From a virus (Duplodnaviria; Caudoviricetes), in the IMG/VR virus record IMGVR_UViG_3300021412_000003, positions 4,929-68,928 of that record: DNA of 64,000 nucleotides; one strand, given 5' to 3'. Of this stretch, positions 10-58,355 are shown one piece after another; position 1 is the first letter of the stretch; each line of letters starts with the position of its first letter. Made by a program: the position numbers and the translations under genes. The notes below the pieces were generated by a model. The model ran no database searches. It was not told the DNA's origin and saw nothing but the letters and a program-made list of their open reading frames with translations.

Positions 10-1701
10 ATGACGAGCCCACTAACAGCGGCTGGCCAGTACGCGAGTGCAGTTCCGTTCTTCGCAAATGTTCCACTGGACGCCAACTTGGCCTCCTCGG
101 GCGAAGATATGTGGCGCACTCGGGCGTACAAGCTGTATGAGGACTTTTATCACAACCGGCCCGAGATGTTCAAGGTCATGCTGCGAGGCGAGGACCAGGA
201 TGGCTTGGAGCTGTACATCCCGTCGGCCCGCAAGATGGTGGACGCAGCCAATCGCTTTCTAGCTAAGGACTTCAGCTATGTGGTAAGCCCCAACTACGGG
301 GACGGCACACAGCGAGCCGCAGTAGAACTCGCCATGAGCAATCTGTTCAAGCGCGAGAAGATGCACTCCAAGTTCAACAACCAGCGCCGATACTACCTTA
401 TTCGTGGGGACGCTCTGTGGCACATCACGGCGGACGAAACCAAGGAACCGGGTAAGCGACTCAGCATTCATGAACTGAACCCCTCCAACTACTTCGCGAT
501 CCTGGATCCGGACAACGACGATCGGCTGCTGGGTGCGCACCTGGTAGATATGGTGCAAGATCCGAATAAGCCAGATGACCGTTCGGCTCGCATTGTCCGT
601 CGTCAGACATACTTGCGGGCGGGTGCCCAGCTCGATCCTAATGGCGGATACTTCGTGCCGTTGGGCTCAGATCCTGGTGGATGGACGAGCTCTCTTACCT
701 TCTGGGAGGTGGGCAAGTGGGACGATCGGTACCTGAAGACCGCAGATCTGAAATCGGTATCTCACCCCGCAACGAAGACGCAGTTCGTATTGGACGCGCG
801 CATCACTTCGATGCCGGTGTACCACTGGAAGAACAATCAGATCCCCGGACAGCCTTACGGCCTCAGCGAGCTGGCCGGAGTGGAGACTTTGATCTCGGGC
901 ATCAATCAGTCTCTCACGGACGAGAACCTCACGCTGGTGATGCAGGGTCTTGGTGTATACGCGACGGATGCAGCTCCGCCAAAGAACGCCGACGGCACGG
1001 ACGGGGACTGGACCATTGGACCGGCTACGGTGGCCGAGGTGGGAACGGGAAACTTCTTCAATCGCGTGAGTGGTGTGTCCAGCGTAGCCCCATTCCAGGA
1101 TCACAGTCAATCCCTGCACAACCATATGTCTCAGTCCCTGGGCATTCCCGACATCGCGCAAGGCCGAGTGGACGTCACTGTGGCGGAATCGGGCATCTCG
1201 CTCTCACTTCAGCTTGGACCGATTCTGTCCAACAATGAGGTGAAGGAAGTAGAGATTCTGGGTACGCATGACCAGATGTTCTATGACCTGACGACTATGT
1301 GGTTCCCGGTGTTTGAGGGGATGAACTTCCCGGATGTGCGGGTGGTCTCGGTGGTGGGCGATCCTATGCCGGTCAATCGCGAAGCGCGTATCCAAGAGAT
1401 TCTGTTGGTTCAGGCTAGCGGCCTTATCACTATCGCGCAGGCTCAGGCGAAGCTCGCAGAGTATGGCTATGAGTTCGATGAGGGTGATGATCTCAAAGTG
1501 GTTCAGGAAGCAGCTGCTCTGGCAGCGGCTCAGAACGGTGACGAGCTAGCAAACCGGTGGGCTCAGGAGATGGAGAATCCAGTGAAGAACTGGTCTCCCA
1601 ATATCGGCACCTCTAGTGTCGCGAGTGCCGCAGTGCAAGGCACCGGAGCTCCTTCGATTACTACGGTAACGAACAACAATGCGGGCAACGGGGCAAGGTA
1701 G
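10..1701 (+). CDS. Portal protein
   Basis: 563 aa, first gene of the head module; SPP1/actinophage portal-like segments (RRYYLIRGDA, PYGLSELAGVETL, IAQGRVDVTVAESGISLSL). Confidence 0.85.
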   Translation: MTSPLTAAGQYASAVPFFANVPLDANLASSGEDMWRTRAYKLYEDFYHNRPEMFKVMLRGEDQDGLELYIPSARKMVDAANRFLAKDFSYVVSPNYGDGTQRAAVELAMSNLFKREKMHSKFNNQRRYYLIRGDALWHITADETKEPGKRLSIHELNPSNYFAILDPDNDDRLLGAHLVDMVQDPNKPDDRSARIVRRQTYLRAGAQLDPNGGYFVPLGSDPGGWTSSLTFWEVGKWDDRYLKTADLKSVSHPATKTQFVLDARITSMPVYHWKNNQIPGQPYGLSELAGVETLISGINQSLTDENLTLVMQGLGVYATDAAPPKNADGTDGDWTIGPATVAEVGTGNFFNRVSGVSSVAPFQDHSQSLHNHMSQSLGIPDIAQGRVDVTVAESGISLSLQLGPILSNNEVKEVEILGTHDQMFYDLTTMWFPVFEGMNFPDVRVVSVVGDPMPVNREARIQEILLVQASGLITIAQAQAKLAEYGYEFDEGDDLKVVQEAAALAAAQNGDELANRWAQEMENPVKNWSPNIGTSSVASAAVQGTGAPSITTVTNNNAGNGAR

Positions 1702-1727: not shown

Positions 1728-1925
1728 GTGGCGTTCGGTATTCGCAAGTTCGCGGTACGAGTGCAGCGGCAGAATGCGAGCTCCAGGCGCCCTGTTCGTA
1801 CCACGTTGGTTCAGCAGCGAAGGATCGGACAGGGTGTCAAGGCTCCCAAGTCAGCCAAGAATGTCCAGGAGAGATTGAAGAATCTGCTGCGAAGCAGAAA
1901 GCTCAAGAAGGGATTGAAACGATAA
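1728..1925 (+). CDS. Small Arg/Lys-rich head-region protein
   Basis: AGGAG RBS before GTG; TAATG overlap with next gene; very basic. Confidence 0.7.
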   Translation: MAFGIRKFAVRVQRQNASSRRPVRTTLVQQRRIGQGVKAPKSAKNVQERLKNLLRSRKLKKGLKR

Positions 1926-2935
1926 TGGCGCGCCGTCGTTACAATCCCGCGCAGAAGAGGGCTCGCAATGGGCAGTGGGCGAAGGGCTCTCTTTCCGGAG
2001 TTAAAGCTAGTACCGCGACCGGAAATACGAAGCGATATGATGCCTTCCTCGCGAAGCAGGCCCAGCAGAAGTCGGCCGCTCGCAAGACGGCGATTAAGCG
2101 AGCCGCACTGGGTGCGGCCCTCGTAGGTGCAGCGGGCGCAGGTGCGTATATTGGGTCACGTGGAAATAACAAAGGAGCCAAGGAAGGCCCCCTCGGAAAC
2201 GTCGCACACGTTCCCGTCAAATCTCAAGGGCCGGAACGACCAGTGGTGGGCAAGATCACGAAGCCTACGAAGATGGAGACGACTGCGAGTCCAGTTCGCG
2301 CAACGTCTTCTGAGCCAGTTCGCGCGAAGGCCGTAAACGGAACAGAGATCAAGCGCACGAAGCCAGCGGCTAAGACGAACCCGGTATCCAATCCAGTCTC
2401 AGCACAGGTCACCTCGGGTGTGGGAACGGTGAAGGCCGAGCGGGCAATGGTCTCCCTGAAGAAGGGGCCGAAGCCGAAGTCTAATCCCTCGGGCAATCCA
2501 GTACCTACGCCGGGCGCGCTCGTTACCGAAGATGGCCAGAACGTGAAGGTCGTCAAGGGCCTCAATGACGCCGAGCGCATTCGTCTTGAGAACAATGCGG
2601 TGGAAGCTGCGGCGAAGTTGGCCAAGCTCGAGAAGCAGGCTGGCGTCAACGTAGGTTCACAGGCTCGCAAAGACTTCGACAAGAAGAACAAGGCGAAGCG
2701 CACCAAGGCTCAGGCGAAGTTGGAAGCCAGCGAAGCTAAACGAGTGAAGCGTCGAGAAGAGATGTCTCAGGCTATCCAGAATAGCTTCGGGGCAGGAGCT
2801 GTCGCTAACTTCACGGGGTCTCGGAGGGATCGAGCAGAGGCACGATATGCCACCCTCTTGGAGAATATGATGGACAGCGGTACATCTCTCAATCGTAGCC
2901 AGCGCAAGTTTCTTAGAGATTACGGAGTTGCATAA
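1925..2935 (+). CDS. Basic head-region protein with N-terminal RNxxGQW-like motif
   Basis: Start re-assigned to ATG 1925 (TAATG coupling); begins MARRRYNPAQKRARNGQW; Lys/Arg/Ala-rich. Confidence 0.75.
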   Translation: MARRRYNPAQKRARNGQWAKGSLSGVKASTATGNTKRYDAFLAKQAQQKSAARKTAIKRAALGAALVGAAGAGAYIGSRGNNKGAKEGPLGNVAHVPVKSQGPERPVVGKITKPTKMETTASPVRATSSEPVRAKAVNGTEIKRTKPAAKTNPVSNPVSAQVTSGVGTVKAERAMVSLKKGPKPKSNPSGNPVPTPGALVTEDGQNVKVVKGLNDAERIRLENNAVEAAAKLAKLEKQAGVNVGSQARKDFDKKNKAKRTKAQAKLEASEAKRVKRREEMSQAIQNSFGAGAVANFTGSRRDRAEARYATLLENMMDSGTSLNRSQRKFLRDYGVA

Positions 2936-3312
2936 TGGCGCGTCGTGGATATAAGCGAGACACTCGGGGTAGGTTCTCTCGTATCGCCGGAACCAAGGTT
3001 AGCTCGAAAGCGGTGGTGCCGCGTCGTACTCCGAAGCGTACCGTTCGGCCCCCACTGAACGCAGCCGCTCGCAGGGCTCGGGGAAAGAAGATTTTGCGCA
3101 ATGTAAAAATCGCGAGAGGAACTCTCCTCGTGGGTGCGGCAGCCTATGCGGCATACGACCTGAATTCGTCGAAGAGTCCCAGCCTTCGGGCTCGTCGGAT
3201 GCACGCCCAGACGATGGGAGAGAGAATCACTCGGGCCAATACTCGAGGTCTCGGGGCCATGACGATCGCCAGGCAGAATCGCCGGGGCGTTTATCGGGTT
3301 ACGAGCCTGTAA
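2935..3312 (+). CDS. Basic protein with RDxxGRF motif
   Basis: MARRGYKRDTRGRF; TAATG coupling on both sides. Confidence 0.75.
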   Translation: MARRGYKRDTRGRFSRIAGTKVSSKAVVPRRTPKRTVRPPLNAAARRARGKKILRNVKIARGTLLVGAAAYAAYDLNSSKSPSLRARRMHAQTMGERITRANTRGLGAMTIARQNRRGVYRVTSL

Positions 3313-3572
3313 TGGCACAGTCGTACAAGAGGGATCGCAGGGGCCGATTCGCCAGAGTAGGCGGCCTTCGGGCCAAGATTCGCGGGAAGCTTATTGGCCC
3401 CAAGCTCACTCGCGAACAGCGAATCGCGAAGGGCCGAGAGAAGAGCCATCAGCGTCTTCTCAAGAAAGGCTATGAAGTCTCCAATCAGTACACGTACAAG
3501 GGAGACTCTAGAGGTCGTCGTCGAGCCGACGGCAAGTATGAGCACAGCGTGAAAGAGTATCGAAAGAAATGA
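3312..3572 (+). CDS. Basic protein with RDxxGRF motif
   Basis: MAQSYKRDRRGRF; translationally coupled. Confidence 0.75.
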   Translation: MAQSYKRDRRGRFARVGGLRAKIRGKLIGPKLTREQRIAKGREKSHQRLLKKGYEVSNQYTYKGDSRGRRRADGKYEHSVKEYRKK

Positions 3573-3575
3573 ACC

Positions 3576-3755
3576 ATGGCCAAGCGCAAGCGGGGAACCT
3601 ATGCTGGATACAAATCCAAGAAGCAGTGGCGCTGGGCTTTCGCGAGCAAGCAACCATGGGCCCGAGAGAAAGCTCACAAGACCAAGGGTGGTAAAGTAAC
3701 CCGATATCGGCGTCTGCCGGAGAGCAAGCACAGCGGCAAGAAAGGAAGGCGATGA
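3576..3755 (+). CDS. 59-aa basic protein (SKKQWRWAFA motif), not in ORF track
   Basis: Hand translation MAKRKRGTYAGYKSKKQWRWAFASKQPWAREKAHKTKGG...; ATGA overlap with next gene. Confidence 0.75.
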   Translation: MAKRKRGTYAGYKSKKQWRWAFASKQPWAREKAHKTKGGKVTRYRRLPESKHSGKKGRR

Positions 3756-4297
3756 GCCGGTATAATCCTCGCCAGGCTCGAGACAAGTTCGGCCGGTGGA
3801 CATCCGGCCGGAAGGTCTCTGCCGTGCCCTACACTCGGCACAGCCTTCGCTCTCAGACCGCCGGGATTAACGCGGGCACGAACATCTCCAAGAATTATCG
3901 CGTTTCAGCCGGTGCTCATTTCCGGATTGAGCGGCGCACTCCTTCCCGCTTGGAAGGAGCGATCATACAGAAGAACAACTCTGCGATCAAGCGGCTCGTG
4001 AAGAAGGTTAGCCCCGGCGAGCACCTGGATCCAGTGATTGAGAAGACCATTCGCAAGGCTCAGAATCGAGTCACGAGCAAGGTACTGGGAAAGACCCTGA
4101 ATCTCGGGAAGAAGGCCAACGTCCGTGGCGGAACTACGCGATCGGGTCTTCCTTCGGTAACTGTTCGATATGGTGGTAGCAGGAAATCAGCCGCCCGCAG
4201 AGCGGCGGGTATTTCGCAGTACAATTCCGCCATGCAGGGGCGGCGGGTGTCCAGGGCAGCAGCGAAGGCTCCTCGCCCACAGCGCCGGGGTAAGTGA
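3752..4297 (+). CDS. Basic protein with RDxxGRW motif
   Basis: MSRYNPRQARDKFGRW; very Arg-rich. Confidence 0.75.
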   Translation: MSRYNPRQARDKFGRWTSGRKVSAVPYTRHSLRSQTAGINAGTNISKNYRVSAGAHFRIERRTPSRLEGAIIQKNNSAIKRLVKKVSPGEHLDPVIEKTIRKAQNRVTSKVLGKTLNLGKKANVRGGTTRSGLPSVTVRYGGSRKSAARRAAGISQYNSAMQGRRVSRAAAKAPRPQRRGK

Positions 4298-4317
4298 TGC
4301 TCACGGAGGGAGATCTA

Positions 4318-4464
4318 ATGGCCAAGGGAAAGCCGTCCAAGGGGACCAAGAAGGATCGGCGACTCAAGACGAACAAAGGCAAGAAGAAGCGCAAGGGCAG
4401 TGGCTCTGCAAAGAAACTGAACAAGAAGAAGTCTCCGGCCCTCAATAAGATTTTGAGATACTGA
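4318..4464 (+). CDS. 48-aa Lys-rich protein, not in ORF track
   Basis: GGAGGG RBS; MAKGKPSKGTKKDRRLKTNKGKKKRK...; TGATG overlap with JAB gene. Confidence 0.7.
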   Translation: MAKGKPSKGTKKDRRLKTNKGKKKRKGSGSAKKLNKKKSPALNKILRY

Positions 4465-4841
4465 TGATTGATCTTCCATCGAATACGATGTACGCTCTCA
4501 CTGCGTTGGCGAATAGTGTTCAGGAGATATGCGGGTACGTTTTGGACGATGGTAGCATCGTAGTGATGCCCAATGTCTCCATAACTCCCACAGGTTCGTT
4601 CGAGGTCGATCCAGAATCTCAACGATGGATCCTACCGGTGATGTGGGAAAGAGTCACAGCTCTGTTTCATACGCATCCCAAGGGTACATGCTGGCCGAGC
4701 GAAATGGACGTAGAGAATTGGCCTGCGGCTTGCGGGGCTGGGGTCAAGTATTTCGTAGTGACCACTCGTGAAGTGGGAGAATTTAGATTGGACGAAGATG
4801 GCAAGCCGAAGCCTGTCGGAGAAGCAGAACTGGCTGCTTAG
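4464..4841 (+). CDS. JAB/MPN+ (JAMM) metalloprotease domain protein
   Basis: EICG plus HTHPKGTCWPSEMD gives a complete E...HxHx7Sx2D JAMM motif. Confidence 0.8.
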   Translation: MIDLPSNTMYALTALANSVQEICGYVLDDGSIVVMPNVSITPTGSFEVDPESQRWILPVMWERVTALFHTHPKGTCWPSEMDVENWPAACGAGVKYFVVTTREVGEFRLDEDGKPKPVGEAELAA

Positions 4842-4845
4842 ATTT

Positions 4846-5700
4846 ATGGCCGTGCAAAAGGCATCTGATGCCCAGGTTGCCGCTGCACTACAGGTCGCTT
4901 TAGACAGCCTTGACGGCCACCTCAGGCGCATTGAAGCCAAGCCGGGGGTAGGTGCCGCTACGCGCCGTGCTCAATTGCTGGGCAACCGTGGGGCCATTAC
5001 GATGGTCCTGGGAGCTTTGTACAAAAGGCTCGGCTTGGTGGTTCGAGAAGGTCAGATGAACGCCGCGCAGGCAGCTACCGAGGCTGAGATCTATTCGTCG
5101 GCCAAGATATACGACGTCATTATTGACGATGCCGAGAAGCGCAGGTTGCTTCAAAGATCGCTAGAGCAGAGCGCCAGGCGCAATATCCAGGTCACTATGA
5201 CCCGAATGAACGTCTCTGAGCAGCCACTCAGTAAGAGATTGTATCGTTCTGAGGCCATGGCCAAGGGGCAGATCAGTCGTACAATCAACAATCATCTCGC
5301 GCGAGGTAGTTCGGCAGCTGATCTTGCGAAGGATGTAAGAGGGTTCTTCAACCCCAAAGTCCCAGGTGGAGTCAGTTATGCGGCTAGTCGTTTGGCTCGT
5401 ACAGAGATTAACAACGCATTCCACGCGCAAGCGATGGCCGATGTAGCCGATCGACCATGGGTTAACCAGGTCAGATGGCACCTCTCTGGCTCGCATAAGG
5501 TTCCAGATGAATGCAATACCTACGCAAATACCGGATTATTTCCGGCTGATAACGTTCCCAAGAAGCCACATCCAAACTGTTTCTGTTATTTCACTCCGGA
5601 ACTTCCGGATGTGGAGACGGTAATCAATGATTATCTGGCCGGAAAGTACAATTCGTGGCTCGCCGAGAGCACGGACGATGGCCTCCGCCGGTCCGCATGA
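4846..5700 (+). CDS. MuF-like minor capsid / head morphogenesis protein
   Basis: RLARTEINNA...W...C...PHPNCFC motifs; start moved to ATG 4846. Confidence 0.85.
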   Translation: MAVQKASDAQVAAALQVALDSLDGHLRRIEAKPGVGAATRRAQLLGNRGAITMVLGALYKRLGLVVREGQMNAAQAATEAEIYSSAKIYDVIIDDAEKRRLLQRSLEQSARRNIQVTMTRMNVSEQPLSKRLYRSEAMAKGQISRTINNHLARGSSAADLAKDVRGFFNPKVPGGVSYAASRLARTEINNAFHAQAMADVADRPWVNQVRWHLSGSHKVPDECNTYANTGLFPADNVPKKPHPNCFCYFTPELPDVETVINDYLAGKYNSWLAESTDDGLRRSA

Positions 5701-5751
5701 GGTAGTATGTCGGCAGGCTTCAGCGTACCGACGAACCGGAGGTTCTACGAA

Positions 5752-6513
5752 ATGAGCAAGAGCTCCCTTCCCCGATTGGATCTTTTCCTCCGGCCGTTCC
5801 TTGGCGGAGATAGCGAAGGAAATGAAGGCGGCGAGGGCGGACAAGGTGAAGGAAAGCCCGGCGGTGAGGGTGAAAATCAGCCCGCTGGTAAGGGCGATAA
5901 GCCAGAAGATGATGACGACGATGACGACGATCATGATGACGACGATCTTTCCGGCATTGCAGATCCGCGAGATCGCCAGATTGCGGCTTTGAGCCGAGAG
6001 GCAGCTCGGCATCGCCGAGAGAAGAATAAGAACAAGAGGGATGCCGAGCGCATTCAGCGAGAGCTTGATGCTCTCAAGAATGGTAAGGGCACCGAGAAAG
6101 AACAGTGGGAGGCTGAGAAGAAGTCGTTCGAGCAAAAGTACGAAGATCTGCTCACGAACACTTCCAATACAGTCCTTCGAAATGCGGTGAAGGATCCAGA
6201 GACAAAGTACTCGTGGTATGATGTACCCGTGGTGATGGGTCTTATTAATCGCGACGCTATTGAGATTGATCTCGAGGAAGGCGTCGTGGACGGCCTGGAG
6301 GCCGAACTGAAGCGCATCGCCAAAGAGAAGCCGTATCTCGTGAAGAAGGGATCCACCGGTGGTGGTAACTCCGGAAGCGGGAATAACAGTTCCGGTGGTG
6401 CCGGGGCTGCGGGGAGCACAGGAAGCAATCCGTCCGGTCGAAACAGCTCCAACGACGCAAGAGCGGCCCAGAGGGCGACACTAGAAAGTAAGTATCCGGG
6501 GCTTAATGTATAA
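5752..6513 (+). CDS. Capsid scaffolding protein
   Basis: Acidic/Gly N-terminal region, coiled coil (REAARHRREK), KPYLVK, Gly/Ser-rich C-terminus; precedes capsid genes. Confidence 0.8.
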   Translation: MSKSSLPRLDLFLRPFLGGDSEGNEGGEGGQGEGKPGGEGENQPAGKGDKPEDDDDDDDDHDDDDLSGIADPRDRQIAALSREAARHRREKNKNKRDAERIQRELDALKNGKGTEKEQWEAEKKSFEQKYEDLLTNTSNTVLRNAVKDPETKYSWYDVPVVMGLINRDAIEIDLEEGVVDGLEAELKRIAKEKPYLVKKGSTGGGNSGSGNNSSGGAGAAGSTGSNPSGRNSSNDARAAQRATLESKYPGLNV

Positions 6514-6544
6514 GCTCTGGAGGAATCCTCTGAAGGGCGAATAA

Positions 6545-6943
6545 ATGGCACGATATGACAAATATGATCCTATGGTGGGCGGTTTCCGCGCGCCCCTTGC
6601 CGCCGACTGGCTTCTCGCTGACGTAAATCGACCTCGTGCGGTTGGTCTCAACTCCAGTGGCCAGATCGTTAAGGGAGCTGGCAATACTGGCATCGTGGGC
6701 ATTCTGATCCTCACCAAGATTCGCAAGGCTGGTGAGATCGTGGATACCATGGACGCGGGTGAGATCGTGGGGTGGGACCCGGTGACGGCGGGTACGTTTG
6801 GTACCGCAGGAACCACCTACTACGCCGACGCGACTACGGGCGCTATCAATTCCACCTCGGCGGCTGGCAAGTTCCAGGTTGGCCGGACGGTAGAAGGTAC
6901 TCGCCTGATCTGCCGCGTGAATCGTACGGAGGTGCCCGCATGA
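6545..6943 (+). CDS. Capsid decoration / head protein
   Basis: 132 aa between scaffold and MCP; small beta-rich head-protein pattern. Confidence 0.6.
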   Translation: MARYDKYDPMVGGFRAPLAADWLLADVNRPRAVGLNSSGQIVKGAGNTGIVGILILTKIRKAGEIVDTMDAGEIVGWDPVTAGTFGTAGTTYYADATTGAINSTSAAGKFQVGRTVEGTRLICRVNRTEVPA

Positions 6944-8124
6944 TCGAGTCGAATCTTCTTGAACTGCTCCTCCAGCCGTTCTGTGGCGGAGATTACAAGG
7001 GTGGTTATCACACCGAAGGCGATATCGTTACCGTCACTCTCGACGGTATTGATGTTAACTCGCTGTGGGACGAGTTCCAGGCCACGCTGGAGATCTACAA
7101 CGCGAAGCGTGCTCAGCTAATCTCGTTGCTGACCTATCCGGTCACCAACTTGGTCGAGACCGTGCCGCAGGTTGGCGATGCGACCTTCGAAGAGGCGTCT
7201 GAGTTCGGCGTCCCGAAGTCGGCTCGTGTGACCGTTGATTACTTCCAGCTTGGTTACGACTTCAAATGGTACGACGTCGCGAACCGTTTCACCTGGAAGT
7301 ACCTGGCTGATGCCGATGCGCGCCAGATCCAGGCGATCCACAATAAGCTCCTCGAGGCCGACCAGAAGCTTGTCTTCCGGAAGGTCATGGAGGCGATCTT
7401 TGACAACCGAAATCGCTCTGCGGACATTCGGACCCAGACGTACAACGTCTACCCGATCTACAACGCTGACGGAACAATTCCGCCCCCGTACAAGGGCGAG
7501 GTCTTTGACGGCAACCACTCACACTTCGTGGTGTCGGCTGGCGCTCAGATCGACTCGGGTGATCTTGAGGACGCGTACGAGCACATCGCCGAGCACGGCT
7601 TCTCCATCGAGGCGGGCACCACTGTCATCTCCATGGTGAACCGCGCGCAGGCGAAGGAGATCCGTAAGTTCAAAGCGGGTGTCGCCAACAACAACGGCGT
7701 CGTAGCGAACTACGACTTCATCCCGGCAGCGGGCCAGCCTGCGATCATCATTCCGAATGCGGATGGTCTCCTGGGCGAGCGGCCTCCGAGCTCGTTCAAG
7801 GGTTTCAAGGTGATCGGCTCCTACGCGGATGTCCTGATCATCGAGGAATCGTACATCCCCGAGGGCTACATGCTCACCTTCGGTTCGGGTGGCGCAGGCA
7901 ATCTTCAAAACCTCGTCGGCCTGCGCGAGCACGCTAATCAGGCCATGCGGGGTCTGCGACTGATGCCGGGTAACCAGCAAAACTACCCCCTCGTGGAGTC
8001 GTTCTACAGCCGTGGCTTCGGCACCGGTATCCGTCAACGTGGCGGAGCGGTCGTGACGCAGTTCAAGGCGTCGGGTACGTACGACATTCCGACCGTCTAC
8101 TCCAATGGCGGAGAGTTGGTGTAA
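6940..8124 (+). CDS. Major capsid protein (HK97 fold)
   Basis: 394 aa from ATG 6940 (ATGA overlap); strong codon bias; EEASEFGVP; position. Confidence 0.85.
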   Translation: MIESNLLELLLQPFCGGDYKGGYHTEGDIVTVTLDGIDVNSLWDEFQATLEIYNAKRAQLISLLTYPVTNLVETVPQVGDATFEEASEFGVPKSARVTVDYFQLGYDFKWYDVANRFTWKYLADADARQIQAIHNKLLEADQKLVFRKVMEAIFDNRNRSADIRTQTYNVYPIYNADGTIPPPYKGEVFDGNHSHFVVSAGAQIDSGDLEDAYEHIAEHGFSIEAGTTVISMVNRAQAKEIRKFKAGVANNNGVVANYDFIPAAGQPAIIIPNADGLLGERPPSSFKGFKVIGSYADVLIIEESYIPEGYMLTFGSGGAGNLQNLVGLREHANQAMRGLRLMPGNQQNYPLVESFYSRGFGTGIRQRGGAVVTQFKASGTYDIPTVYSNGGELV

Positions 8125-8127
8125 CAG

Positions 8128-8505
8128 ATGAGTCTGCATGGCAAGATCGATCTTTCCCGGCCTCTTACCGATGCCGAGAAGGAGTGGCTGTACACCCGTC
8201 CAGGCGGGCGGGCTCAGGTCGCTGTCAACGATCGGCAATTCGGCCACTTGTCGGAGGAAGAGCGATCTGCCTTGCAGGTTTCTCATCGGGCCGACATGGA
8301 GGATGAAGCCGAGCGTGAAGCAGCCTTCCGCCGGGAGGAAGACGAGGATGGCTTCGATGAAGAAGACATCGCCAAGGTCGCCCCCCTCAGGGTGGACGAA
8401 CTCCGCGCGTGGCTGAAGAAGAAGGGCCTCGATCAGACTGGATCGAAGGAAGATCTTCAGGTCCGGATGCTCGAGAAGCTGGAGAAGGATCGTCTCGGCA
8501 AGTAA
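8128..8505 (+). CDS. Protein with C-terminal SAP/HeH-like domain
   Basis: LRVDELRAWLKKKGLDQTGSKEDLQVRMLE matches SAP consensus. Confidence 0.65.
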   Translation: MSLHGKIDLSRPLTDAEKEWLYTRPGGRAQVAVNDRQFGHLSEEERSALQVSHRADMEDEAEREAAFRREEDEDGFDEEDIAKVAPLRVDELRAWLKKKGLDQTGSKEDLQVRMLEKLEKDRLGK

Positions 8506-13154: not shown

Positions 13155-14009
13155 ATGCCTTTGCCCGATGCTCTCCCCTATGGCGTCCGTGACCTGAAGG
13201 TCACTCCGTACCTGGACGCCGTAGGTTCGCAGCTCGCCACCGTGAGTGTTGACCTCCCGAACATGCAGACCCTCACCTTTCGTGAGACCGAGGAGTTCCA
13301 GGACCTGCGAGGTGACGATCGGATCGTCGCGACTCGTGGCCGTGGCGCACAGGTGGAGTGGGATATCGAGGCCGGTGGCATGTCGCCACAGGTCTGGGCT
13401 ATCTTCACCGGTGCCGAAGTCCTGGAAACCGGAGTCACCCCGAATATCAAGGTCCTCATCCGCAAGAAGGGCTCCGACGCGCGCCCGTACTTCCGTATCG
13501 AGGGCCAGTCCATCTCGGACTCTGGCGGAGATGTTCGTATCGTGATCTACCGCGCTCGTTGCAACGGCAACATCGAGGGCGAATTCAAGGATGGCGATTT
13601 CTTTATCACCAAGGGCTCTGGCCTCGGCCTGCCCTTGCTGGATGACCAGAACGACCTCCTCTACGATATCATCCAGAATGAGGAGAAGACCAGCATCTCG
13701 CTCACTCCGGATCCGAACCCGTTGCCTACGCCTCAGAACATTGAGGTCGGCGCGGTGGCAGCTACCACCGTGGCTCTCAGCTGGGACGAAGTCACCGACG
13801 CCGACAGCTACCTGGTCCAGAGTGCGGTGTCTCCGTACACCACTTGGGTCGATGTTACTTCGGGCGCAGGTGGCGAGCCGGTCACGGAGTCTACGACTGT
13901 CACCGGCCTGACCGCCTCTACCGCATACAAGTTCCGTGTTGCCGCTGTCATTGATACTGTGGAGACTGACTTCTCCACTCCGACCGGCGTCGTCACCACC
14001 ACTGCGTAA
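13155..14009 (+). CDS. Major tail (tube) protein with C-terminal fibronectin-III domain
   Basis: LPYGVRDLKVTP N-terminus; PQNIEVGAVAATTVALSWD...YKFRVAA FN3 signature. Confidence 0.85.
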   Translation: MPLPDALPYGVRDLKVTPYLDAVGSQLATVSVDLPNMQTLTFRETEEFQDLRGDDRIVATRGRGAQVEWDIEAGGMSPQVWAIFTGAEVLETGVTPNIKVLIRKKGSDARPYFRIEGQSISDSGGDVRIVIYRARCNGNIEGEFKDGDFFITKGSGLGLPLLDDQNDLLYDIIQNEEKTSISLTPDPNPLPTPQNIEVGAVAATTVALSWDEVTDADSYLVQSAVSPYTTWVDVTSGAGGEPVTESTTVTGLTASTAYKFRVAAVIDTVETDFSTPTGVVTTTA

Positions 14010-25655: not shown

Positions 25656-26954
25656 ATGGAGAACAAGTTTTGGCCCCTTGCTAAGGGGTCATTCACAATC
25701 TCGTCTGGATTCGGTCCACGAGATGGTGGCTTTCATTATGGAATGGACTTCGCGGCCAAGAGGCGTGTACCGATCTATGCTCCGGTTGATGGCTTTGTCG
25801 TTGAAGGTCTTGAGCGGGAGAATGTTCAGGGATTTGGCAAGTGGGTTTGGCTGGACTGCCAGGAGACTTGGGGGATAGACTTTATCGTGGGGCACTGCGA
25901 CCCCATGGTTCGCAAGAATGAGATTGTTCATGCTGGAGGCCTCATTGGATACGTCAACAGCCATGGGCAGTCTACTGGACCACATGCTCATTGCGAGGTA
26001 TGGACCAGGCCGGGACGCATTGGAGGAAAGGCTGTTGATCCGGCTCAGTGGCTGAAGGATGCGAAGTATGTCGGGGAGATTATGGAACCGACGAAAGGCG
26101 GTAGTATGAGCAATCCGATCACTAGAACCATGCTAAGCCCCAATTGCCATTCGGGTGGCAGGGGCGTTGACTGGATCGGTATTCATACGCAGGAAGGCGG
26201 GCGCAAAGCAGTAGACCTCGCGACCTACTGTGGCAATCCGGCTCCTGGAGGAGATCCGAACAGAGCAGTCTCGTACAACGGAGTCGTAGATGATGTAGAG
26301 TCTATCCTGGTTGTTCCATGGGACATGAATCCATGGTCTGCGTCCAATGCGAATAGCCGTGCAGATCACATCTGTGCGGCCGGAAGCTATGCCGGTTGGT
26401 CTCGGGGGAAATGGCTAGAGACTGATGCTAGTGATGGAAAGAACGAAGACCTCGAACTCACCAAGCTAGCCCAGCTTACCGCGTGGCGATGCCAGGTTCG
26501 AGGTATCCCTCCAGAGTATGTAGGGAATTATGGAAAAGGTCCATTTCCGCCAAGCAAGCCGGGTATCTGCGGTCATATGGACTTCGGCCCGTGGGGAGGT
26601 GGCCACCACGATCCAGGGGTAAACTTCCCTTGGGATGAATTCATTCGCCGAGTAAAGGCATTCTATAATGGAGGCACAATGGGGTTCCTTGACGAAACAT
26701 TCAAGAACTTTCAGAACAACAATGTGACGATTCGCACCGTCTTGTTCTTCGTGGATCAGAAGATCGAGGCCATACGGGCTCAGGTCGTTGACGGATGGGC
26801 ACAGCTCGGCACCAATGCCGAGGGTAAGCCACTGACCCTGATTGATAGTCAGGCTATTCAGAACAGCAAGCTGGACCAGATCATTGAGCTGGAGAAGAAG
26901 ATTCTGGACCTTGGCCAGAAGACCTACGAACTTATCCTGGCAGAGAAATCATGA
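25656..26954 (+). CDS. lysA: Lysin A: M23 peptidase + amidase_2 + C-terminal binding region
   Basis: HYGMDF...GPHAHCE (M23); IHTQEG...GHMDF...HHDPG (amidase). Confidence 0.9.
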   Translation: MENKFWPLAKGSFTISSGFGPRDGGFHYGMDFAAKRRVPIYAPVDGFVVEGLERENVQGFGKWVWLDCQETWGIDFIVGHCDPMVRKNEIVHAGGLIGYVNSHGQSTGPHAHCEVWTRPGRIGGKAVDPAQWLKDAKYVGEIMEPTKGGSMSNPITRTMLSPNCHSGGRGVDWIGIHTQEGGRKAVDLATYCGNPAPGGDPNRAVSYNGVVDDVESILVVPWDMNPWSASNANSRADHICAAGSYAGWSRGKWLETDASDGKNEDLELTKLAQLTAWRCQVRGIPPEYVGNYGKGPFPPSKPGICGHMDFGPWGGGHHDPGVNFPWDEFIRRVKAFYNGGTMGFLDETFKNFQNNNVTIRTVLFFVDQKIEAIRAQVVDGWAQLGTNAEGKPLTLIDSQAIQNSKLDQIIELEKKILDLGQKTYELILAEKS

Positions 26955-57662: not shown

Positions 57663-58355
57663 GTGAAACACCAGGTCATTGACCTGGACGCAAATCGGCG
57701 CCCTCGGAAAGTAAAGGTAATCGATCCAGAAGATATCCCCAGCGAAGTACAAGTTCTCGCCCTCGACCCTGGCGGAACTACCGGCTGGACGATTCTTACC
57801 TGTGATCCCATTGCCTTACTTCCCGAGGGACCGAGCGTTCTTAAGTCCGTTCAAAGGTGGTACATTGGCCAAGTTGACTGCGGCTCAACGAAAGGCAATT
57901 TGGGGAATAGTCCGTACACAGGGATTTCTACTGCTGGAGAGTCTGCTGGAGCAGCTGTCCTCGGACGACTTGCGCGAAATTGGCCTGGAGCTGCCATCGT
58001 GGTTGAGTCTTTCATTCTCCGACAATTCAGCAAGGATCAAGATCTCCTTTCCCCGCAAAGAATCACAGCCAAATTCGAGCAGTACCTGTGGCTCGACGGC
58101 CGGAGCTACTTCACGCAAAGTCCAAGCGAAGCCAAGACGAGCGCAACGGATGAGCGCCTGAAGACGTGGGGATTCTACACCAGTGAGGGAGGTCTCCGCC
58201 ACGCTCGCGATGCGACCCGGCACGGACTCACGTTCTTGCGCCGAGCCTCCCAGCCCGGAAGAAAGGCGGCGGAACTAAGAGTCGCGGCGTGGCCGCACTT
58301 CTTCGCGGCCGGGTCTCCATACGGCCCGGAACTGCGAGCAGAGGAAACAGCGTAA
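57663..58355 (+). CDS. RuvC-like Holliday junction resolvase
   Basis: VLALDPGGTTGW, IVVESF, RHARDATRH. Confidence 0.8.
   Translation: MKHQVIDLDANRRPRKVKVIDPEDIPSEVQVLALDPGGTTGWTILTCDPIALLPEGPSVLKSVQRWYIGQVDCGSTKGNLGNSPYTGISTAGESAGAAVLGRLARNWPGAAIVVESFILRQFSKDQDLLSPQRITAKFEQYLWLDGRSYFTQSPSEAKTSATDERLKTWGFYTSEGGLRHARDATRHGLTFLRRASQPGRKAAELRVAAWPHFFAAGSPYGPELRAEETA

Follow-up and report, generated by a model that had tools for sequence, protein, structure and literature searches.

We analysed a 64,000-nucleotide stretch of DNA from a soil phage of the Caudoviricetes (the window; positions 4929-68928 of the 68.9-kb virus record IMGVR_UViG_3300021412_000003, which is rated 100% complete). Our results suggest that a standalone JAMM/MPN+ zinc metalloprotease of 125 residues, encoded in the head module at 4464..4841 on the + strand (ATG at 4464, stop at 4841), is probably a phage-encoded leader peptidase that removes short N-terminal leaders from both the scaffolding protein (5752..6513) and the major capsid protein (MCP; 6940..8124), cutting after Gly-Gly.

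The scaffold begins MSKSSLPRLDLFLRPFLGG|D and the MCP begins MIESNLLELLLQPFCGG|D, so that each leader consists of a hydrophobic stretch followed by Pro-Phe-x-Gly-Gly, with the consensus PFxGG|D. The scaffold leader (5752..5808, 19 residues, ending ...RPFLGG) is predicted to be cut before Asp20, while cleavage of the MCP leader (6940..6990, 17 residues, ending ...QPFCGG at base 6990) would leave a mature protein starting at Asp18 (DYKGGY...). When all six frames of the 64 kb were scanned, the pattern PF.GG[DEN] occurred exactly twice, at these two N-termini, which bears out the original prediction that the two proteins share a leader. A third PF.GG, at 57841, was dismissed, as it lies in a non-coding frame overlapping a RuvC-like gene.

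The original prediction had also placed a complete JAMM protease at 4464. The protein indeed carries the full motif, with the general-base Glu21 at 4524-4526 and H69-x-H71-x7-S79-x2-D82 at 4668..4709, and E21, H69, H71, S79 and D82 are invariant in 16/16 aligned homologues that are 25-71% identical. Pfam Prok-JAB (PF14464) matches it with 28.7 bits against a cut-off of 25 (E 1.3e-6). An AlphaFold2 (AF2) model (pLDDT 89.9, pTM 0.83) shows the MPN fold, with 5LD9/5LDA as the top Foldseek matches (TM 0.73), followed by Rpn11 and BRCC36, and the best match of the JAMM alignment profile in the PDB is P. furiosus JAMM1 (5.7e-15). The enzyme fold and its intact active site are thus demonstrated, and its closest solved relatives are the standalone archaeal and bacterial JAMM1 enzymes.

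The JAMM gene sits between the portal and MCP genes, the place of prohead proteases in head modules, and its product has no homology to known prohead protease families. HK97-type and ClpP proteases had been described as lacking from the window, and this extends to the complete 68.9-kb genome: among its 79 open reading frames (ORFs; 15 + 64) there was no Pfam match to HK97-type (S78), S77, ClpP/S14, S49 or S21/S80 proteases, PF04586 and PF00574 had no match in this genome (G000), and no Prp-type peptidase was matched. The sole other peptidase domain detected by Pfam is an M23 domain in the lysin (25656-26954). Since the leaders, the uniqueness of their motif, the JAMM motif and the lack of another candidate protease all hold, the initial observation is confirmed in full.

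The window phage is uncultured, and published N-terminal processing of the scaffold or MCP is available for its relatives Patience (mass spectrometry (MS) and cryo-electron microscopy (cryo-EM)) and Adjutor. Peptides of Patience gp21 begin at residue 35, with glycine at -1, a start for which the authors give no reason (Pope et al. 2014, PMC4324244). In the GenBank sequence this residue maps to ...RVLPIFGG|TSPE, and synteny identifies gp21 as the scaffold. The cryo-EM model of the Patience MCP begins at Thr20 (Podgorski et al. 2025, PMC11965321), directly after ...PVFPIFGG, and that of the Adjutor MCP begins at Asn28 (PMC11965321), three residues past ...VVGLSG. Consequently, a cut exactly after the homologous motif is demonstrated in Patience, and the part of the original prediction that placed the cut after Gly-Gly is supported. 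Pope et al. also list gp19, the JAMM homologue, as 'Protease', and in their Table S1 (PMC4324244) gp19 has 11 spectra at 2.5 h and none at 30 min or in particles, while gp21 has 214-218 spectra late in infection vs 3-5 in particles. The homologue of the enzyme is therefore a late protein that is absent from virions. The minor capsid protein of both Patience and Adjutor keeps its N-terminal Met in the model despite a conserved GG at residues 12-13 (PMC11965321). Not all GG sites are therefore cut, and the decoration protein of the window (6545..6943, + strand; phrog_5042), which has GG at residues 12-13, serves as an internal negative control.

The shared leader motif varies from phage to phage, and in nearly all head modules with both ends readable the scaffold and MCP have a short N-terminal motif in common. 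Both proteins end their leaders with KFFAFGG|D in Suzy, IYGA|E in L011, DIVGA|D in Kurnik, PIFGG|T in Patience and PFGG|D in L009, and the Adjutor leaders end with GLTLSG|H (scaffold) and VVGLSG|H (MCP). Cut sites beyond Patience and Adjutor were placed by eye. About 24/27 JAMM-positive lineages have a motif ending in Gly-Gly, Gly-Ala, Gly-Ser, Ser-Gly or x-Gly, a count made by eye on inferred cut positions, save that of Patience. We scored co-variation as the best ungapped 7-mer match between the scaffold and MCP N-termini, in BLOSUM units, across 34 representative head modules; this set leaves out the close duplicates L003, L005, L006, L008, L013, L015, L020, L027, L041, L044 and L047, as well as L023 (PBI1-like) and loci without a readable scaffold. 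The mean leader match was 23.3 for own scaffold/MCP pairs vs 17.6 for mismatched pairs, the observed own-pair mean was reached in 0/20,000 permutations, and the own MCP ranked first for the scaffold leader in 8/34 phages. The nearest relative of the window phage, L003, has an MCP that is 94% identical to the window's and a JAMM protein that is only 70% identical, and here P6 and P3 are altered jointly in both leaders (Q/R to L/L and C/L to K/R, respectively). That the leaders are shared and co-vary is thereby demonstrated. Leaderless MCP homologues in bacterial genomes start with MARGINA, MPRGYNA or MAKGYST, at most a few residues away from where the mature protein is predicted to begin.

We then compared the distribution of the MCP family with that of the JAMM gene. 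With the window MCP as the query, tblastn identified homologues in 161 phage records, which we refer to as the Patience-like family; their hosts are Mycobacterium (72), Gordonia (46), Microbacterium (38), Arthrobacter (2) and Nocardia, Micrococcus and Curtobacterium (1 each). An IMG/VR scan added 45 loci of this family. The window JAMM protein identified 124 phage records (72 Mycobacterium, 46 Gordonia, 1 Nocardia and 5 others), 119 of which were taken to be the same as MCP records from the identical organism/host counts, not from a record-by-record match. The remaining 5/124 fall outside the MCP family, and all of them are weak tblastn matches to lambda-K-like tail proteins.

The 42 MCP records that initially seemed to be without a JAMM gene mostly carry a divergent one. 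It is of the Krampus type (gene 3) in 36 Microbacterium records, a 358-residue form at 55 kb in the two Wollypog-type records, and a gene between portal and MuF in the single Kurnik record; Triscuit also has one. Altogether, a JAMM gene is present in at least 158/161 sequenced phages with the MCP family, a tally in which one Microbacterium and one Curtobacterium record were left unexamined. Whole-record searches in IMG/VR revealed JAMM genes in G005, G006, G007 and G011 and beside L081 as well. An early 'JAMM-less' class, defined by tblastn and a strict pattern, fell once whole-record Pfam/HMM searches found divergent JAMM genes elsewhere in the genome; its refuted members are Kurnik, Krampus, Wollypog, Triscuit, G005, G006, G007, G011 and L081. 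A single divergent JAMM query against related loci returned only its self-match. Absence was called on whole records by combining Pfam, a custom hidden Markov model (HMM) from 24 JAMM sequences and a motif scan.

The cleanest converse case for the link between enzyme and leader is L106. This locus has the same terminase-portal-MuF-scaffold-decoration-MCP module, its MCP is leaderless (MAKGYST) and its scaffold is without a hydrophobic leader. No JAMM gene was found between its portal and MuF genes, nor in the stretch that begins 10 kb before the MCP and runs to the end of the contig, and the single Pfam JAMM-type match in the assembly is a RadC-type protein on another contig. The co-occurrence of JAMM gene and leader, proposed originally as a check, thus holds for nearly all of the sequenced phages and for L106, which lacks both, and breaks down in G001 and in 11 bacterial islands, which have the leader and no JAMM gene.

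The Kurnik locus (L052:6639-6914 / L053:1240-1827; record 13582-13908) is annotated in GenBank with a 91-residue 'hypothetical protein' of odd composition. Read in a different frame, the region encodes a canonical JAMM protease (Pfam 34.9 bits) with homologues among the JAMM genes that Gordonia and Mycobacterium phages carry in their head modules.

Several observations weigh against the JAMM protein being the leader peptidase. That it makes the cut is what we infer. The JAMM enzymes known so far recognise both the tail and the folded domain of a ubiquitin-like protein, and the substrate proposed here is a peptide 15-35 residues long. The JAMM gene of several relatives is located outside the head module, being gene 3 in Krampus and lying at 55 kb in Wollypog; in L081 and G007 it precedes the portal gene by 7-8 kb. 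No JAMM gene was found in G008 (complete, with terminal repeats), G002 (89% complete) or G001 (84% complete). The leaders of G008 and G002 are of a different shared type, DLR.AF..., with a hydrophobic residue instead of glycine at the cut position (aligned by eye), and as G008 is complete, a shared leader does not require a JAMM enzyme. Searches for canonical proteases in the JAMM-less relatives found none, and thus gave no sign that another protease has taken its place there. G001 (L028) has Gly-ended leaders (MCP ...MVAGG|A) and is a real exception, unless its JAMM gene lies in the missing 16%. The 11 islands have an MCP with a GG/GA leader and no JAMM gene within 10 kb. Regarding the Patience data, the lack of density for MCP residues 1-19 could in principle reflect disorder instead of cleavage, and the 2014 paper put the MCP (gp23) cut at 82|83 from MS and a gel (PMC4324244). 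This latter site is unsupported, as the 2025 model contains residues 20-82 (PMC11965321).

Residues 25-97 of Patience gp23 (L049:7061-8263) include neither Lys nor Arg. The N-terminal tryptic peptide would therefore be invisible to standard MS, which may explain the earlier 82|83 call.

In the JAMM-less relatives with DLR.AF leaders (L036:3100-4590, L040:2612-4072, L041:3666-5072), a protein of 470-500 residues is encoded just after MuF, with an N-terminal helix-turn-helix (HTH) and a C-terminal ADP-ribosyltransferase (ART) domain, and a small Cys-rich ORF follows. In L032:4087-5538 the ART domain is fused to MuF. These HTH-ART proteins are polyvalent-protein-like head cargo.

The islands come from the loci L073-L099 (e.g. 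L074:3304-11711, L093:4696-11773 and L090:3480-11083), in which a lone MCP homologue, 34-42% identical to that of the window, is found in genomes of Nocardia, Gordonia, Rhodococcus, Mycobacterium, Hoyosella and other actinobacteria. Its neighbours are an integrase and/or serine recombinase, a Prim-Pol replication protein and a small 'RDRxGRW/F' ORF, and within 10 kb of the island MCP there were no portal, MuF, scaffold, decoration or JAMM genes. This is a satellite-like architecture. Among the 28 loci with a readable MCP N-terminus (27 in L073-L099 plus L106), 12 have a GG/GA leader (the 11 islands and the true phage L081), 11 are leaderless (L106, with its full phage head module, included) and 5 are ambiguous. 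As the islands are without all the other head genes, a helper phage or host enzyme must serve them.

These exceptions leave room for a different account, in which a host protease or an unrecognised phage protease cuts the leaders and the JAMM enzyme acts elsewhere, for example by stripping the host's ubiquitin-like conjugates from phage proteins as an anti-defence measure or in another assembly task. We consider this clearly unlikely. The JAMM clade is nearly confined to phages of the MCP family (119/124 matches), the gene is missing from the leaderless relative L106, the Patience homologue is expressed late alongside the head proteins, and JAMM enzymes are characterised by cutting after Gly-Gly. 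Moreover, the phage genome yielded no Prp-type peptidase, and no ubiquitin-like partner gene adjoins the JAMM gene. What speaks for it, besides the Gly-ended leaders without a JAMM gene in G001 and the satellite-like islands, is that the gene lies among non-structural genes in some relatives, that bacteria are described as conjugating ubiquitin-like proteins to phage parts, and that in phage 80alpha a host protease, Prp, cuts the shared scaffold/MCP leader (Kizziah et al. 2017, PMC5744158). A cut by another head-module protein, whether the basic protein at 3752..4297, the MuF-like protein or the MCP acting on itself through its own HxH metal site, seems highly improbable, even though PHROGs labels the 3752..4297 family 'head maturation protease', GenBank often gives 'capsid maturation protease' to MuF homologues, and the His-rich metal site of the Suzy MCP matches a loose JAMM pattern. 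The basic protein was rejected as a protease: its family has no invariant His, Asp, Cys or Glu in the alignment, and its Patience homologue, gp18, is abundant in particles (PMC4324244, Table S1). The MuF-like protein has no peptidase match in Pfam, and Suzy-type phages, which have no tblastn-detectable MuF, keep both the JAMM gene and the leaders. We know of no protease activity for the MuF domain. At the metal site of the MCP, four protein ligands are described as locking a helix in place (PMC11965321).

It is also conceivable, although somewhat unlikely, that the leader chiefly tags scaffold and MCP for assembly, folding or co-targeting and that its removal is incidental and unnecessary for capsid maturation, in which case the JAMM enzyme would be no 'maturation protease' in the HK97 sense even if it is the cutter. 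This idea and the leader-peptidase explanation overlap and are not mutually exclusive. The scaffold leader of 80alpha is essential and cutting of either protein is dispensable (PMC5744158), the JAMM-less G008 and G002 retain a shared DLR.AF leader, and leaderless MCP homologues exist; on the other side, the retention of the enzyme, with its invariant active site, in at least 158/161 sequenced family members argues that the cut matters. Compared with the 'head-maturation' protease of the original prediction, 'leader peptidase' is the safer term, because nothing shows that the cut drives maturation and in 80alpha it can be dispensed with.

Two further observations concern these other candidates. 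The 3752..4297 family has a conserved ...RPQRRG(K) tail and a VPY.R...G.N.G core, and its PHROG label looks like guilt by association. The H-x-H motif of the MCP metal site, a putative zinc site reported in Patience-like capsids, is a trap for motif-only JAMM screens.

Our model for the JAMM leader peptidase is as follows. The enzyme would be produced late, together with the head proteins, when scaffold and MCP are each synthesised with a short leader of 19 and 17 residues, respectively. It would bind the hydrophobic-Pro/aromatic-Gly-Gly segment as an extended strand, as JAMM deubiquitinases bind a ubiquitin-like tail, and hydrolyse the ordinary peptide bond after the second glycine (the last small residue), releasing an MCP that starts at Asp18 and a scaffold that starts at Asp20. 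Cutting would take place before or during procapsid assembly. The leader itself is probably an assembly or folding tag for the scaffold-MCP pair, as proposed for 80alpha. Gly-Gly hydrolysis by the window enzyme is putative, extrapolated from the sites that follow Gly-Gly in relatives, and the leader is not a beta-grasp domain.

The system is most likely an 80alpha-like form of shared-leader processing carried out by a phage-encoded metalloprotease of the deubiquitinase fold. As in 80alpha, scaffold and MCP of the window phage share a short conserved N-terminal sequence with a single site-specific cut, and the scaffold is a separate protein; the leader has 13-14 residues in 80alpha vs 17-19 here. 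The proteases differ. Prp, which belongs to the host, is a cysteine protease with a Phe|Ala cut site and ribosomal protein L27 as a further substrate (PMC5744158), whereas the candidate in the window is a phage-encoded zinc JAMM enzyme with a predicted cut after Gly-Gly, and none of the 79 phage ORFs matched a Prp-type peptidase family. The standalone JAMM1-type enzymes (P. furiosus JAMM1, 5LD9/5LDA; DSY2949, 2KKS; D. radiodurans DRJAMM) resemble the window enzyme in fold, catalytic motif, single-domain organisation and size (~125-150 residues for prokaryotic standalone JAMM proteins). Cleavage by such enzymes follows the Gly-Gly at the C-terminus of a ubiquitin-like protein and extends to ordinary peptide bonds in linear fusions. 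Their substrate is a folded beta-grasp protein, whereas that proposed here is a short, unstructured-looking leader on capsid proteins. DRJAMM, a bacterial standalone JAMM, is reported to cleave a linear MoaD-MoaE fusion (PMC8832034).

Lambda gpK-type proteins likewise provide a phage-encoded MPN/JAB domain, but the window enzyme is a single domain of 125 residues without an NlpC/P60 match, encoded between portal and MuF in the head module. In gpK-type proteins the MPN domain is fused to NlpC/P60 and the gene belongs to the tail module. With the canonical prohead proteases (HK97 gp4/S78, ClpP- or S49-like, T4 gp21) the window enzyme shares genome position and substrate class, namely MCP and scaffold. 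These are serine proteases that co-assemble with the procapsid, where a delta domain or the scaffold is their usual target, whereas the window enzyme is a metalloprotease, its Patience homologue is absent from virions, and it would remove only a short leader.

The head module of the window is entirely on the + strand, in the order portal, small basic ORFs, JAMM, MuF-like, scaffold, decoration and MCP. The portal gene (10..1701; phrog_64, 1.2e-36) is followed by a run of small, very basic ORFs (1922-4464) that reaches the JAMM gene and includes the homologue of Patience gp18 (3752..4297; phrog_12708), a basic virion protein. The JAMM start overlaps the stop of the preceding gene (TGATG). The MuF-like minor head protein (4768..5700; phrog_17987, 1.3e-68; Pfam Phage_Mu_F 23.2 bits, under the cut-off) is encoded by an ORF that overlaps the 3' end of the JAMM gene, and its true start is uncertain. 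The scaffold (ATG at 5752; Pfam PF06810, 44.4 bits; phrog_4866) and the MCP (ATG at 6940; phrog_3990, 2.6e-170), which has a Patience-like HK97 fold, each have a GGAGG Shine-Dalgarno sequence 7-9 nt before their ATG. The portal-JAMM-MCP order also occurs in Patience, Fowlmouth, Suzy and Kurnik. A megablast search of the phage collection with 4000-8200 gave no match, so relatives are detectable at the protein level only.

Four successive basic ORFs (1922-2935, 2935-3312, 3312-3572 and 3752-4297) each open with a similar motif, Tyr-(Lys/Asn)-(Arg/Pro)-...-Arg-(Gly/Lys)-(Arg/Phe)-(Phe/Gly), of the type R-D-x-x-G-R-F. This motif also begins the small ORF downstream of the satellite-island MCPs, and the Patience genes at the position of these ORFs (1922-4297) encode virion proteins. 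The motif may be a packaging or portal-targeting tag.

That the JAMM gene is 'the protease' is already implicit in annotation; what is new is the motif in the substrates, where they are cut, how the leaders co-vary and how this connects with JAMM specificity. A full-text literature search, which leaves most subscription journals uncovered, returned no paper in which a JAMM/JAB enzyme is connected with a leader common to scaffold and MCP or with a Gly-Gly cut. The accessible portions of the two Patience papers (PMC4324244, PMC11965321) do not connect leader, Gly-Gly site and JAMM enzyme, and those of Podgorski 2020 and the 2022 dendrogram preprint state nothing about cleavage of Patience-like MCPs. 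Across databases the JAMM gene is named inconsistently. Besides the 'Protease' of Patience gp19, some cluster D GenBank records have 'capsid maturation protease', many records have 'metalloprotease', and PHROGs and RefSeq have 'tail protein', the last because of the resemblance to the lambda gpK-type MPN domain.

If a JAMM enzyme does cut these leaders, it would be a mechanistically new class of capsid-processing enzyme, in which the target of a deubiquitinase fold is a simple N-terminal leader and not a ubiquitin-like domain. To our knowledge, capsid processing has so far been attributed to serine proteases of the HK97, T4 and herpesvirus types and, for 80alpha, to a cysteine protease of the host. 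The proposal joins three unconnected observations on Patience, namely that gp19 is labelled 'protease', that gp21 starts after a glycine and that residues 1-19 of the MCP are missing. It also explains why JAMM genes have been labelled 'tail protein', 'metalloprotease' or 'capsid maturation protease' and, in one case, called in the wrong frame, and it gives a rule that predicts the mature capsid N-termini of more than 150 sequenced phages. The leader-peptidase idea is directly testable in cultured phages of Mycobacterium smegmatis. In a broader version, which we regard as possible though short of probable, JAMM would be the dedicated capsid-assembly leader peptidase of a whole actinobacterial phage lineage (mycobacteriophage clusters including the Patience- and Adjutor-like ones, plus Gordonia, Microbacterium, Arthrobacter and Micrococcus phages), the leader would be a minimal mimic of a ubiquitin-like tail that co-evolves with the enzyme, and the leaders of satellite MCPs would suit the enzyme and scaffold of their helper.

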